DNA of 64,000 nt from sequence record NC_054918.1; one strand, 5' to 3'. Both the position numbers and the translations under genes were made by a program. This document shows positions 2,448-64,000 of the stretch, piece after piece; position 1 is the first letter of the stretch, and each line of letters opens with the position of its first letter. Origin of the DNA: Escherichia phage vB_EcoM_G4498. Under the pieces are notes generated by a model, which was not told the DNA's origin, did no database searches, and saw only the letters and a list, made by a program, of their open reading frames with translations.

Positions 2448-4264
2448 TACTGGCTCATCCATTCTTTACGAAGGTCAGCATTATCTCCCATGAGCATTTC
2501 AAAAAGCTCTTTCCAGTTCTCAGGAAGTTTAACAACATCATATACTGGATTTTGAATCATCTCACGATATTCAGATTTTTCCAAAGAGCCAAGTCCTTTA
2601 ATATAACGGATGCTATGTTTAGGTAGAGCATCTTTAGCACTCTCATATTCAGCGACTGTATAAAACCATTCTTGTTTTTTACCAATCTGTGCGATGATTA
2701 CAGGAGTTTTGACAAAGCGAATTCGTCCTTGCTCAAACAGTTCTGGCCAATTACTAAAAAATCCAAGCAGAGAAGGATAAATGCTTCCTAGACCATCATG
2801 GTCAGCATCAGTCATAATAGCAATATTATGATAATTCAAGTTTTCAGCTTTTTCACCGAGAACTAATCCAGTGATTGCGCAAATATCAAACAGTTCTTTG
2901 TTTTTAAGCATGTCAGCATATGACATACCCCAACTGTTGAGAACTTTACCACGTAATGGATAACCACCGTGAAGTTCTTTATCACGAACATCAATAAGAT
3001 ATCCGATAGCCGAATCACCCTCAGTCAAGAAAAGAGTAGTATCAGCATCTTTACCACAAAGATTCGCTTTAATATGTTTATGAACCTTAGCTTTAGAAGC
3101 CTTTTTAGCTGCTTTAGTTTCTGCTGCTTTTTCTGCCGCCAATTTACGAGCCAAAGCAGCTTCAATAATCGGCATTAGAATTGCTTCATTATTTAGAATA
3201 GCGCGTGAAATCTTTTTAGCATCAAGTTGAATATGACTACGAATTTCGCCAAATGGAGAAGTCAAACGCTCTTTAGTTTGAGAATCAAATCGCATGTTTT
3301 TCATATCACGAACAAACATAACGATAGTCAAACATTCTTTAACACGCGCTTTAGTTACATCAATTTTGAACTTACGTTTGATTTGTGGAATAAGGTCTTC
3401 ACAAATATCATCCATAACACAGTCAATGTGATGGCCACCATTCTTAGTGTGAATGTTATTGACGTATGTTAATTGACGAAAACCATCCGGTGAACGACCA
3501 ACCGCAATAGAACAATTTTCTTGTTCTTGAACAATAGCATGCTCATCATATTGGCGTGCATATTTCTTAAAATTGCCCTGAACCTTTTTACCATTAAAGG
3601 TAAATTGAATATCAGGATAAACAACAGCAAGTGTCTGGAGACGATCTAATGTAATGTCAAGATAAACTTGAGATAATTCATTAGTTTCAAATGACATAAA
3701 ATCTGGAATGAAAGTAACACGAGTTCCTTTCCATTTTCCAGGAATAGTTTCCCATGATTTATTTTCCATGCCATTTGAACAACGAACTACAATATTATTT
3801 TGACCATCGCCAGTTTCACCGACAAACATCACAGAAAAAATGTTAGTTAAACTAGAACCAACACCATTCATACCACCGGTGACGCGTTCTTTATCATCAC
3901 CAAAGTTACCACCTGCTTTTGGAATAGTCCACGCAGCAACTGGACCAGGAATTTCTTCACCGGTAGGTGTTTTGACCATCGCTTGTGGAATACCACGACC
4001 GTTATCTTCAACTGTTACTTGATTGTTTTTAATAGTAACATTAATTTTATTTGCGAATTTAAACTTAGTACGAATACCTTCATCTACTGAGTTATCGATA
4101 ATTTCATCAATAAGCTTAACAAGACCAGGTACATACTGAACACTTTCCCATTTACCAAACAGAAAGCGCTCATGCATTTCATTAGCGGAAGAGCCAATGT
4201 ACATGCCGCTACGCTTTTTGATATGTTCAATATCGCTCAGAATTTTAATTTCATTCTTAATCAT
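2447..4264 (-). CDS. 39: DNA topoisomerase II large subunit, uninterrupted 605 aa (T4 39 + 60 equivalent)
   Basis: GHKL ATPase and Toprim motifs. The sequence ...GEKAENLNYHNIAIMTDADHDGLGSIYPSLLGFF... is continuous. ATG at 4262-4264; the track ORF begins one codon earlier at a GTG. Confidence 0.95.
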   Translation of the reverse strand: MIKNEIKILSDIEHIKKRSGMYIGSSANEMHERFLFGKWESVQYVPGLVKLIDEIIDNSVDEGIRTKFKFANKINVTIKNNQVTVEDNGRGIPQAMVKTPTGEEIPGPVAAWTIPKAGGNFGDDKERVTGGMNGVGSSLTNIFSVMFVGETGDGQNNIVVRCSNGMENKSWETIPGKWKGTRVTFIPDFMSFETNELSQVYLDITLDRLQTLAVVYPDIQFTFNGKKVQGNFKKYARQYDEHAIVQEQENCSIAVGRSPDGFRQLTYVNNIHTKNGGHHIDCVMDDICEDLIPQIKRKFKIDVTKARVKECLTIVMFVRDMKNMRFDSQTKERLTSPFGEIRSHIQLDAKKISRAILNNEAILMPIIEAALARKLAAEKAAETKAAKKASKAKVHKHIKANLCGKDADTTLFLTEGDSAIGYLIDVRDKELHGGYPLRGKVLNSWGMSYADMLKNKELFDICAITGLVLGEKAENLNYHNIAIMTDADHDGLGSIYPSLLGFFSNWPELFEQGRIRFVKTPVIIAQIGKKQEWFYTVAEYESAKDALPKHSIRYIKGLGSLEKSEYREMIQNPVYDVVKLPENWKELFEMLMGDNADLRKEWMSQ

Positions 4265-17749: not shown

Positions 17750-17914
17750 TTACTCTTCTTTTTCTTTAGATTCCTCTTTTTTCTTTTTAGGAATCTGTTC
17801 AGGACCTTTATTTACTACAGCGCCTGATGCTGTTCCAGTAGAGATATTTTCAGGATTACCACCTGAATCTCCAGCGACCATATCTTCTTTGATAAATTCT
17901 TTATATGTTTTCAT
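17750..17914 (-). CDS. small protein (61.1 position), 54 aa, with a capsid-targeting-like N-terminus (not in the ORF track)
   Basis: My own translation: MKTYKEFIKEDMVAGDSGGNPENISTGTASGAVVNKGPEQIPKKKKEESKEKEE. Fills the gap exactly. Confidence 0.55.
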   Translation of the reverse strand: MKTYKEFIKEDMVAGDSGGNPENISTGTASGAVVNKGPEQIPKKKKEESKEKEE

Positions 17915-62041: not shown

Positions 62042-62371
62042 TCAATTAGAAAATAAATTTATCCAGGATTGTTCTTTAATTAAAAATGGCTCAGAATCAT
62101 ATGCCATTAAACTTTGGGTAATTAACCCTTTAAAAGGTCCATCAATAAATTCCATGGTAAAATATGGAATTTTATTCATTAGCCGTGCATTAGGAGCAGT
62201 ACATAAAACTCTGCATCCTTTGAATACACCTTTTTGTAATTTGTATTGCTTGGGATAAAATTCGCTCAAAATGTTATTATTTGCTAAAATTTCAAAATGA
62301 TTCACCAATTTATTTTTAATAGTTTTTGGCGAAAAATAAAGATATTCGAAAAGCTGAGTGTCTGTCATCAT
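62042..62371 (-). CDS. hypothetical protein (vs.7 position), 109 aa
   Basis: ATG at 62369-62371 overlaps the upstream stop (ATGA). Confidence 0.55.
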
Positions 62372-62907
62372 TGCATTCCGATTATGAAAAACTGTGGACG
62401 AGTAATACCACCAATGCAACAGTTAATATTACAGCAGTGGTGTACAGTGTCAATATGGACACTATAAATCTTATCCATATCAGGAGATTTGACAGGCTCA
62501 TCAATTATATATAAAATTCGCGAAAGCGATAAACCTCTGAACTTGCTTCCTTTATTACCAATAAAACTGCGCACAGAATCAGTAAATAAACGAAAACGTA
62601 TATCATCATTAGAATAACGCGAAAATTCCTTTTTAATGTTATTTGCAGAAATTTTAGCGTAAGCTGAAGTATTAGAAAGAACAATAACTGTTCCGCCATC
62701 ATATAACCAATTAGCAGCAAAATTAGTCACAGCAATTGATTTACCGGATTGACGTCCACCATCTATACGAAGTGTGCAATACTGTTTAAGTAAGTCTTCA
62801 AATGGTGGGATATAATCGTTTTTACAAATTTCTTCTACTCTAGCATCAGAATGGTGTGTAAAAGCATTCATCAGGGATAGATAAGGACCAGTTAAAAATG
62901 TTCTCAT
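62368..62907 (-). CDS. P-loop NTPase (vs.8 position), 179 aa
   Basis: Walker A DGGRQSGKS and Walker B ILYIIDEP. Start at MRTFLTGPY (ATG 62905-62907) after AGAGAGAATAAA. Confidence 0.65.
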   Translation of the reverse strand: MRTFLTGPYLSLMNAFTHHSDARVEEICKNDYIPPFEDLLKQYCTLRIDGGRQSGKSIAVTNFAANWLYDGGTVIVLSNTSAYAKISANNIKKEFSRYSNDDIRFRLFTDSVRSFIGNKGSKFRGLSLSRILYIIDEPVKSPDMDKIYSVHIDTVHHCCNINCCIGGITRPQFFIIGMQ

Positions 62908-62940
62908 TTTATTCTCTCTAGGTTTGGGCCATTCCGTGGC

Positions 62941-62975
62941 GCATGAATTGTCCATTTCTGTATTTACCCATTACC
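62941..62975 (-). repeat. 35-nt element following an internal-protein gene (copy 1)
   Basis: gcatgaattgtccatttctgtatttacccattacc. 33/35 identical to 63577-63611. Confidence 0.8.
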
Positions 62976-63048
62976 GCACTTGGGCTCGACCTTATTACAT
63001 GTTGGCGGGAATCCCTCACAAAATCATGAGGTCCAGGTTGTTCCCATG

Positions 63049-63522
63049 TTATTTGAACGATTTAACGTACTGAATAGAACCTTTACTATTCACAAAGGCA
63101 ATTTTACCATTTTTGTTATACATAGTAGCAGTACGTTGATAACCGTAAGTTTGTTTACCAGATTGATAACCAACTAATGCGAAATTATCTTCACCCATTT
63201 TATTCTGTTTAGCGCGAATGCGTTCATGACCATGTGCCATAAGAACCTTAGCATCACCAGTTGCAATGGATCGACGAGTTTTTTCATCTTCAGCTGTATT
63301 AACAAAGTCGTCAAATGAATCAAATTTAGCATGAGATTTATTATACAGTTTTCCATCTACTGCATAATTATATCCTTGTACATCCATCTCAACTTCTGTA
63401 CCATCATCTAATACAGCAGTAATTTTCTGTCCTTTTTTAAATTTCAAAAGATCAGTAAAAGATTCAGCAATAATTTGAGAATTAATAGCTGCCTCAGTAA
63501 TAAATTCTTGATATGTTTTCAT
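63049..63522 (-). CDS. capsid-targeted internal head protein (IP family), 157 aa
   Basis: The N-terminus MKTYQEFITEA is the T4 internal-protein capsid targeting sequence with a prohead-protease site. The body does not match my memory of IPI/II/III. Confidence 0.75.
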   Translation of the reverse strand: MKTYQEFITEAAINSQIIAESFTDLLKFKKGQKITAVLDDGTEVEMDVQGYNYAVDGKLYNKSHAKFDSFDDFVNTAEDEKTRRSIATGDAKVLMAHGHERIRAKQNKMGEDNFALVGYQSGKQTYGYQRTATMYNKNGKIAFVNSKGSIQYVKSFK

Positions 63523-63563
63523 GTATATCCTTTAAATGTAAATAGTTTTATTCTTTAAGTTTT

Positions 63564-63589
63564 GGACAATTCACACGCATGAATTGTCC
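63564..63589 (-). other. perfect 10-bp stem / 6-nt loop hairpin between the two IP genes
   Basis: ggacaattca-cacgca-tgaattgtcc. Confidence 0.7.
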
Positions 63590-63611
63590 GTTTCTATATT
63601 TACCCATTACC
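63577..63611 (-). repeat. 35-nt element following an internal-protein gene (copy 2)
   Basis: gcatgaattgtccgtttctatatttacccattacc. Its low-coordinate end forms one arm of the perfect 10-bp hairpin at 63564-63589. Confidence 0.8.
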
Positions 63612-63630
63612 AGGTTCGAACTCGGCTTTA

Positions 63631-64000
63631 TTAAGAATTACCGCGGGCTGCATTAGCAACGGCGTAAGCGTACTGAACATTAGCGTCTTTAAACGTACCT
63701 TTAGAGGTATCTATTTCTGCCCTAAAGCCGCCTTTAGTCATAACATCGGCAAATTCTTTACGGAAAGCCATTGCATCAAGACTTCTCCATGATGATTTGT
63801 GCTTGGCAAATTCAAGACCTGCGAAGTTGACAGCTTTAGCCAATTTATTATCAATGACCCATTTACCGGCTTTAGGCACAAACTTCGGGCCTTTTTGTTT
63901 AGAGAACAGTTTTAAATTCCAGCGACGAAGGTCACTGTCGGCTTTAACAAAAGCTGCGTCTAAGTTACTAGCAACAACATCTTCAATATGAGCAAATTTA
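63631..64000 (-). CDS. 3-prime part of a gene running off the window end (probable second internal protein)
   Basis: The frame stays open from 63879 to 64000 (...KFAHIEDVVASNLDAAFVKADSDLRRWNLKLFSKQKGPKFVPKAGKW...). The track start is an internal GTG. Followed by the same 35-nt element that follows the IP gene. Confidence 0.6.
   Translation of the reverse strand, partial: KFAHIEDVVASNLDAAFVKADSDLRRWNLKLFSKQKGPKFVPKAGKWVIDNKLAKAVNFAGLEFAKHKSSWRSLDAMAFRKEFADVMTKGGFRAEIDTSKGTFKDANVQYAYAVANAARGNS

Follow-up and report, generated by a model that had tools for sequence, protein, structure and literature searches.

The 35-base repeats around the ip4 gene of Escherichia phage vB_EcoM_G4498 as probable pieces of a duplicated vs.8 leader

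The subject of this analysis is a pair of 35-base direct repeats that flank ip4, an internal-protein gene of Escherichia phage vB_EcoM_G4498 (NC_054918.1), near the end of the 64,000-nucleotide stretch that was analysed (hereafter, the window). The window end belongs to a Tequatrovirus (T4-like) genome, whose closest records are VEc74 (97.2%), ECML-134 and Shfl2. All genes of the locus lie on the minus strand and follow each other, in the sense of transcription, as the 3' part of ipIII, copy 2 of the repeat with its hairpin, ip4, copy 1, vs.8, vs.7, and vs.6. Gene identities were taken from PHROG matches, tblastn with T4 proteins and the annotation of relatives. The ipIII part is 93% identical to residues 72-193 of T4 IPIII, and this C-terminal portion matches phrog_5341 (internal virion protein, E = 8e-68); ip4 possesses the capsid-targeting leader MKTYQEF.. 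of internal proteins, matches phrog_3155 (internal virion protein, E = 4e-101) and has counterparts annotated as Ip4 or ipIV in RB14, T2, PST, and Shfl2. As for vs.8, its product matches phrog_1488 (E = 4e-79), a profile that begins at the methionine of MRTF, and is 94.5% identical to residues 38-219 of T4 Vs.8. The features of the locus are as follows.

62368-62907, minus strand: vs.8, 179 aa from MRTFLTG (ATG at 62907), with a Walker-A-like GGRQSGKS
62908-63048, minus strand: complete non-coding vs.8 leader, about 140 nt, containing copy 1
62928-62940, minus strand: small hairpin GCCA-CGGAA-TGGC, after which come CCC and the ribosome-binding region of vs.8
62941-62975, minus strand: copy 1 of the 35-mer, made up of the 3' strand of the core closing helix, a linker and the conserved AUGGA..AUG block
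62959-63013, minus strand: three-helix core with conserved junction strands, its last 9 nt, GGTAATGGG, being the first 9 nt of copy 1
63014-63031, minus strand: 5' hairpin of the leader, CCTCATGATTTTGTGAGG, variable between genera
63049-63522, minus strand: ip4, ipIV-type internal protein of 157 aa with the N-terminus MKTYQEFITEA
63523-63545, minus strand: conserved translation-initiation leader of ip genes, CTATTTACATTTAAAGGATATAC, directly preceding the ip4 ATG
63564-63589, minus strand: perfect hairpin GGACAATTCA-TGCGTG-TGAATTGTCC, its 5' arm (mRNA sense) inside the 35-mer
63577-63611, minus strand: copy 2 of the 35-mer, within the degenerate duplicate of a part of the vs.8 leader (about 63546-63630)
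63631-64000, minus strand: ipIII (internal protein III), of which the window contains the 3' part only, with stop codons TAATAA (stop at 63631)

The two copies agree at 33 of 35 positions and are the sole matches to the 35-mer in the 64 kb at up to three mismatches, while none is expected from 100 shuffles; the repeat reported by the first-pass annotation of this DNA is therefore real. So is the looser similarity it had seen beyond the 35-mer: without gaps, the copies resemble each other over 58 nt at 81% (62940-62997 against 63576-63633), and once gaps are allowed, the homology reaches from the stop codons as far as the following ribosome-binding region and takes in most of each intergenic region. 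Both copies carry GGGTAAATA on the minus (coding) strand, which, as had been stated, is not a canonical late promoter. We read the 35-mers as paralogous pieces of one non-coding leader of about 140 nt, located upstream of vs.8 in T4-like phages of enterobacteria, of which copy 1 is the intact form and copy 2 a partial, decayed duplicate between ipIII and the next ip gene. With a recombination origin and a role in RNA stability included, this reading is given a probability of roughly 0.65.

Copy 1 belongs to vs.8. A search with the 141-nt leader gave matches to the whole or a part of it in 1112 phage records (coverage of at least 80% in 555), and it stands upstream of vs.8 in nearly all T4-like loci inspected, the one exception being the contig L039 discussed below (L numbers denote fetched loci). 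In the fetched Tequatrovirus loci, copy 1 precedes vs.8 after ip4 (SA21RB, RB14, NBEco003, T2), after denV (T4, JE01, VIPECOOM01) and after an ipII or ip4 remnant (W143); it is identical at 35 of 35 positions in 15 of the first 16 sequences examined, T4 having one mismatch. In mRNA sense, the leader consists of the 5' hairpin, the three-helix core of about 45 nt, a linker, the hairpin GCCA-NGGAA-UGGC and the vs.8 ribosome-binding site. The 5' hairpin is longer in other genera, and its inner helix differs, by eye, on both sides (ACG-UCG-CGU versus AAC-AAU-GUU), while the GCCA/TGGC stem of the small hairpin is invariant across the T4-like genera. The counterpart of the 35-mer in these genera comprises the 3' strand of the helix, a variable linker and the conserved block AUGGA..AUG(Y)GCCA-NGGAA-UGGCCC. 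The T4 RefSeq coding sequence of vs.8 (219 aa) starts about 120 nt upstream of MRTF and reads through the leader (L004 2290-2413, corresponding to window 62908-63019). Since this frame is in the window a separate open reading frame (ORF) of 33 aa with a GTG start (62918-63019), closed by TAG, since the frames differ elsewhere and since the PHROG profile starts at MRTF, this stretch should be non-coding leader, and the 40 residues with which the annotation of T4 Vs.8 begins are probably an artefact.

Another short upstream frame, M-D-(N/E/Y)-(S/L)-C-A-(T/K)-E-(W/R)-P..., begins at the conserved AUGGA of the leader (window 62905-62955; L004, L025, L041, L046, L047). Its end overlaps the vs.8 start (AUGA) in T4, L025, and L047 and lies a few nucleotides before it in L041 and L046; in the window the frame is fused to vs.8, and in KpV477, VR5, and L045 it is absent. 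The same stretch has a conserved GGA motif in a hairpin loop and a second conserved one at a distance of about 20 nt, a layout that resembles CsrA-type binding sites. The GTTTAC-N17 boxes located after the core in Mosigvirus and Jiaodavirus may be early promoters, but their -10 positions are not conserved.

Copy 2 is rare. Among 50,697 phage records, the ipIII-ip4 intergenic region matched 479 places in 465 records, and just 14 records, those with copy 2, cover at least 80% of it. In each of the seven copy-2 sequences inspected base by base, copy 2 directly follows the ipIII stop codons. The next gene is ipII in W143, JE01, and VIPECOOM01 and ip4 in the window, VEc74, and ESh24; TB004 is unannotated there. 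SA21RB keeps the order ipIII-ip4, the genes being 41 nt apart, and has no copy 2, and ip4 is accompanied by a single copy of the 35-mer in SA21RB, PST, RB14, T2, and NBEco003. Copy 2 is a chimera of three parts: the 3' end of ipIII (TAATAAAGCC...), the leader from GGTAATGGG to ...AGAATAAAA, and the generic ip translation leader CTATTTACATTTAAAGGA (leaders of the CTATTTACATTTAAAGGATATAC type are common to the ipII and ip4 upstream regions of T4, RB14, SA21RB, and JE01). The core motif and the small hairpin are missing from it, and the conserved AUG has become ACG. The covariance model of the leader core, R1, does not detect copy 2 of the window and gives the copies of W143, JE01, VIPECOOM01, and TB004 only 11.4 bits (E = 0.8). 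Compared with copy 1, the copy-2 sequences form a mosaic: among the loci inspected, agreement with copy 1 is confined to the window and VEc74 at positions 7 and 9 and to ESh24 at position 16. This pattern suggests gene conversion from copy 1, which would explain the agreement at 33 of 35 positions in the window (two differences), where 4-8 differences from copy 1 are found in the remaining copy-2 variants. The string GGTTCGAACC in copy 2 hinted at a tRNA or tRNA-like origin, which was rejected, as ARAGORN finds no tRNA in the window.

What copy 2 has retained is a stem. The inverted repeat 63564-63573 / 63580-63589 is complementary at 10 of 10 positions (stem of 10-11 bp), and its RNA folds with -15.0 kcal/mol (z = -4.7), none of 200 shuffles being equally stable. 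In copy 1 the partner arm is degenerate, 6 of its 10 bases agreeing without gaps with the 3' arm of copy 2, and the fold is weak and different (-5.1 kcal/mol), in agreement with the earlier description of a perfect 10-bp hairpin whose partner arm is missing from copy 1. A stem of 9-11 bp is kept in all seven copy-2 sequences inspected, at -9.1 to -15 kcal/mol, and that of ESh24 shows a compensatory change from A-U to G-C. Over 111 nt, the window and VEc74 (L011 3052-3057) differ only at 63574, 63575, 63578, and 63579, which amounts to an inversion of the 6-nt loop; thus both orientations, TGCGTG and CACGCA, occur in otherwise identical intergenic regions, and the same flip separates W143 from TB004 (L005 versus L015). 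The imperfect palindrome of copy 1, GGACAATTC..GGAATGGCC, is perfect in copy 2, all four substitutions in the 3' arm raising the complementarity; either selection for an RNA stem or templated correction of the palindrome would explain them. Quasi-palindrome correction and inversion of hairpin loops by template switching were reportedly described for T4 rII by Ripley and co-workers. Copy 2 resembles that system in that its palindrome has been perfected relative to copy 1 and its loop occurs in both orientations in near-identical phages; selection for an RNA stem, however, would produce the same stem pattern.

The first-pass annotation described internal-protein loci as hypervariable among T-even phages, and the fetched loci bear this out: their gene orders from e to vs.8 include e-ipIII-ip4, e-ip4, e-denV-ip4, e-ipIII-ipII-denV, and others. 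It also placed denV between vs.8 and the ip genes of T4, which is correct (vs.8-denV-ipII-ipIII-e), and considered denV missing here; tblastn with T4 DenV indeed finds none within the 64 kb (best E = 3.8). As this sequence stops within ipIII, it leaves out the ipIII-e interval, where denV is located in W143 or NBEco003, and a denV at that place would escape notice; in VEc74, the closest relative, no gene of denV size is annotated in this interval, in which no denV search was run. At the DNA level, denV is present in only 67 phage records, and its position varies between phages. T2 has the order e-ipIV-leader-vs.8 without denV, and therefore the phage studied here combines a T4-like ipIII with a T2-like ipIV-vs.8 part, copy 2 lying at the junction. 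In L039 (9880-10452), a Jiaodavirus-like contig, a 100-aa ip gene (MKTYKEFITEA...) is located between a complete vs.8 leader and vs.8 and is flanked by direct repeats of GCCAAGGAATGGCCCC, the duplicated sequence being the small hairpin region of the leader; the arrangement of the window has an independent parallel here. In L005, L012, L013, L015, L008, and L009 (W143, JE01, and TB004 among them), the sequence ..ATATTTACATT(C/T)AAATAA.. just upstream of the vs.8 leader joins, by eye, a generic ip-gene leader to the apparent last codons and stop of ip4, and this scar appears to be the trace of an ip4 deletion. Comparison of the sequences makes a strong case for shuffling at short homologies in the e-to-vs.8 interval. 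Microhomology-mediated deletions have been found to remove ipIII, a gene needed on some hosts (PMC9391042).

From the anatomy and distribution of the two copies, and from copy 2 having lost the core but kept the hairpin, we infer both a history of recombination and a role in RNA stability. The leader would have been duplicated by recombination at short homologies during the shuffling of ip and denV modules in the hyperplastic e-to-vs.8 region, and patchy gene conversion from copy 1 would have kept the 35-mer nearly identical in this phage. The copy-2 element would now serve mainly as an intercistronic spacer, whose stem-loop may act as a barrier to decay or processing on a polycistronic ipIII-ip4-vs.8 mRNA. 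Several points weigh against this reading. The copy-2 sequences inspected are seven of the 14 records. The product of a deletion between copy 1 and copy 2 (ipIII-hybrid-vs.8) was sought in the phage collection, and none was found; recombination between the two copies themselves is therefore not documented. The 5' part of copy 2 fits two alignments about equally well, one ungapped against the core (63%), the other with an internal deletion of the 5' hairpin and core. A perfect palindrome can persist through templated (quasi-palindrome) repair, and not through selection on RNA. Finally, a search for T4 transcript-end maps found none.

The core to which copy 1 contributes its first 9 nt is a subject in its own right. 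The motif (about 45 nt, with the core sequence ACCUGUAAUAAGGUCGAGCCCAAGUGCGGUAAUGGG) consists of a covarying closing helix, the hairpin CCU-GURRNA-AGG, a 2-bp hairpin, and the invariant junction strands UCGA and GGUAA, and is usually preceded by a variable 5' hairpin. In the window, the sole match of R1 is the leader core at copy 1 (68.6 bits, E = 2e-23); further instances are found in L016 (2493-2547), L017 (2489-2543), L021 (1489-1543), L022 (1492-1546), and L020 (1494-1547). The segment 5' of copy 1, including its first 9 nt, is more than 90% identical in nucleotides to otherwise unrelated lytic phages, and a 40-mer of the core matches 1205 phage records. The core is often situated in long unannotated gaps, sometimes near tRNA clusters, in the orientation of the neighbouring genes: in a 344-nt unannotated gap upstream of the tRNA cluster of rV5 (Vequintavirus), in a 337-nt gap of the 45-kb coliphage Ivi, and inside the tRNA cluster of Pseudomonas KIL1 (Flaumdravirus); it also occurs in Jiaodavirus, Karamvirus, Mosigvirus, Rheinheimera Barbavirus, and a Vibrio myovirus. 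In an alignment of 21 diverse sequences, from which R1 was built, 82% of the cells are paired in the three-helix fold, as against 25-44% with the partners slid; eight of the 11 core pairs change on both sides, and the observed covariation score is reached in 0 of 500 shuffles. A second alignment, with metagenome matches added, gives the same picture. The closing helix reads CC/GG in T4, GC/GC in Ivi, GG/CC in Karamvirus, and AUUUCUC/GAGAAAU in Rheinheimera, and between two related contigs it shows a C-G to U-A change.

The core motif is new, in that it matches no Rfam family and no description of it was found in the literature. Rfam 15, searched at E up to 10, gave nothing beyond chance for the window end, and no family except their tRNAs for the loci of rV5, Ivi, and KpV477, and the core is not a tRNA by ARAGORN; a literature search for core sequence strings found no paper. 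Blastn of the core against 5,426 Escherichia coli genomes gave no match, nor did an exact 23-base pattern of it in 185,579 bacterial and archaeal reference genomes (species). The hammerhead, pistol, and twister ribozymes, RNase P P10-12, the RfaH ops site and the hexaloop of the 23S GTPase centre were considered and rejected, as they fit few bases only and have no Rfam support. We put at about even odds that the core is a structured RNA domain, closed by the first 9 nt of copy 1, which could be a phage RNA of a new class, acting as a ribozyme, as an aptamer, or as a decoy or processing signal that engages a host factor. Were this so, the 35-mer repeat would mark a decayed second copy of the core.

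Three observations concern individual instances of the core. At window position 63000, this phage alone has T (A in mRNA sense), while all other sequences have G (C in mRNA sense). The CCU/AGG hairpin thereby loses its central pair, and the core scores 68.6 instead of 75.8 bits with the model; either a sequencing error or a mutation private to this phage may be responsible. Karamvirus carries two tandem cores about 110 nt apart (L023 1490-1544 and 1604-1656; L042; L071). Upstream of the core of rV5 (L016 about 2620-2650, minus strand), the sequence GAGTTCCCCTTAGAGGGCTTGATAG appears to start like the E. coli type I-E CRISPR repeat (GAGTTCCCCGCGCCAGCGGGGATAAACCG) and could form a similar small hairpin.

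The first-pass annotation proposed that repeats flanking a variable gene are what cassette exchange by recombination would leave behind, and an explanation by which the 35-mer is a dedicated recombination signal that brackets ip alleles and mediates their exchange has a published precedent. Arbiol et al. 2010 (PMC2839356, citing Repoila et al. 1994) and Comeau et al. 2014 (PMC4122927) place PeSL-like elements (PeSL, promoter-early stem-loop) at the two T-even internal-protein loci; the plasticity of these loci is ascribed there to conserved promoter/stem-loop elements and PeSL-mediated shuffling. In T4 (ipIII-ipII) and in T2 and RB14 (e-ipIV), we find an early promoter GT(T/C)TAC-N17-TA(G/C)TAT that overlaps a hairpin (GAATTGTGA / TCACAATTC) before the ip gene, and this is the published PeSL-like element associated with internal proteins. 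What the 35-mer has in common with a PeSL is its shortness, its conservation between genes, the stem-loop, and its repetition around a dispensable gene of a hyperplastic region; homologous recombination that shuffles modules has plausibly produced it and also used it as a substrate. Unlike a PeSL, copy 2 has neither the early-promoter hexamers (no GTTTAC in either copy, and no sigma-70-like match) nor a U-tract, and it goes back to the vs.8 leader instead of the promoter family found upstream of ipII and ipIV in T4, T2, and RB14. Of the attributes of such an element, the window thus shows the stem-loop (in copy 2) and the repeated position between genes of a hyperplastic region, while the early promoter is absent; copy 2 would be the stem-loop half of a PeSL with its promoter half missing.

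The part of the proposal that stands is that ip4 is flanked by direct repeats in a highly variable, shuffled locus, and the ip gene of L039, likewise flanked by repeats of leader sequence, points the same way. A signal bound to ip boundaries is nevertheless unlikely. The 35-mer does not always flank ip alleles in T-even loci: copy 1 stays with vs.8, also when its neighbour is denV or a gene remnant, the five phages named above have ip4 with one copy only, copy 2 is limited to 14 of the 50,697 records, and the deletion recombinant is missing. The element is part of a conserved vs.8 leader unrelated to ip boundaries, an outcome that corresponds to a refuting condition set by the first-pass annotation.

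Quite improbable, in turn, is a weak late promoter with a stabilising hairpin at the 5' end of its transcript. If the gp55-RNA polymerase started about 6 nt after (G/A)(G/A)TAAATA, a late ip4 or ipII mRNA would begin 2-3 nt before the hairpin, a geometry that would put the hairpin at the 5' end, and internal proteins are required late. Copy 2 reads AGATAAATA in W143, JE01, VIPECOOM01, and TB004 and TGATAAATA in ESh24, and all five of these relatives have GATAAATA, a 7/8 match; single deviations from TATAAATA occur among the 50 T4 late promoters listed in PMC2988020. The box of the window, GGTAAATA, however, has two deviations, at -13/-12, and does not fit the T4 late promoters, which have TATAAATA at -10; of the 50 listed sites, all but two depart from it at a single position at most. 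The same box is also present in copy 1 upstream of vs.8, within a counterclockwise early/middle block. TATAAATA itself is absent from the region, and promoter and terminator scans of both copies gave nothing above chance, with no promoter-like site in 63523-63633 or 62908-63048. A related arrangement is known at T4 gene e, where a hairpin inhibitory in early transcripts is bypassed by late promoters (PMC3014915). The copy-2 hairpin is similar in lying between an upstream read-through transcript and a downstream gene, beside a TAAATA-containing box; unlike the gene e hairpin, it ends 41 nt before the ip4 ATG and leaves the ribosome-binding site free, and its box is not a consensus late promoter.

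That the hairpin is a transcription terminator or a site of processing by RNase III or RegB, as had been suggested for testing, is very improbable. The scan yields one terminator-like site, the hairpin on the plus strand with the tail TTTCTATATT, which is the chance rate (shuffle mean 1.0), whereas all genes of the locus lie on the minus strand, where the tail is AAAACTT. In mRNA sense this tail, AAAACTTAAAG, is AAAACUU, without a U-tract, and no GGAG is found on the minus strand of 63523-63633; lacking both, and situated 41 nt from the ip4 start, whose ribosome-binding site is not sequestered, the hairpin is therefore no intrinsic terminator, RegB site or trap of the ribosome-binding site. 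Its stem of 10-11 bp is also short for RNase III.

Hardly credible, lastly, is a small coding ORF in the frame VMGKYRNGQFM: both differences between the 35-mers are synonymous there, on third codon positions, the 33-aa ORF exists, and T4 vs.8 is annotated from an upstream ATG covering the element, yet we reject the hypothesis, as the frame is interrupted differently among phages (after two codons in KpV477), the start is not conserved (ATA in W143-type copy 2, GTG in copy 1 of the window), the conservation with rV5 and Ivi is at the nucleotide level with non-synonymous changes, the ORF has no PHROG match and the Vs.8 profile begins downstream of it.

Two side observations concern the genes of the window. 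Vs.8 (62368-62907) weakly matches the ATPase region of the large terminase (phrog_2, E = 7e-6), which, together with its Walker-A-like motif, suggests a P-loop NTPase. A 54-aa ORF at 17750-17914 (minus strand) starts with MKTYKEFIKE, an N-terminus of the internal-protein, capsid-targeting type, and lies directly upstream of a 342-aa ORF, which, from its sequence and with no search made, we take to be the gene 61 primase.

That internal-protein loci contain conserved elements between their genes, and that these take part in the shuffling of modules, is already published, and the repeat itself is ordinary in kind: part of a conserved leader has been duplicated within a region whose hyperplasticity was known, and, unlike the published PeSL-like elements, the repeat has no promoter. 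IPI and IPIII, which are injected internal proteins, have anti-defence roles. The e-to-vs.8 region carries such injected proteins and denV, and its shuffling therefore bears on host range. The repeat, as a duplicated piece of the vs.8 leader and not a cassette signal specific to ip genes, is a further case of rearrangement of this region at short homologies. For a new functional RNA, the core of the leader is a good candidate: over about 45 nt it is nearly invariant across unrelated lytic phages, the bacterial genomes that were searched contain no match to it, and it is open to direct tests in T4, the phage studied best.

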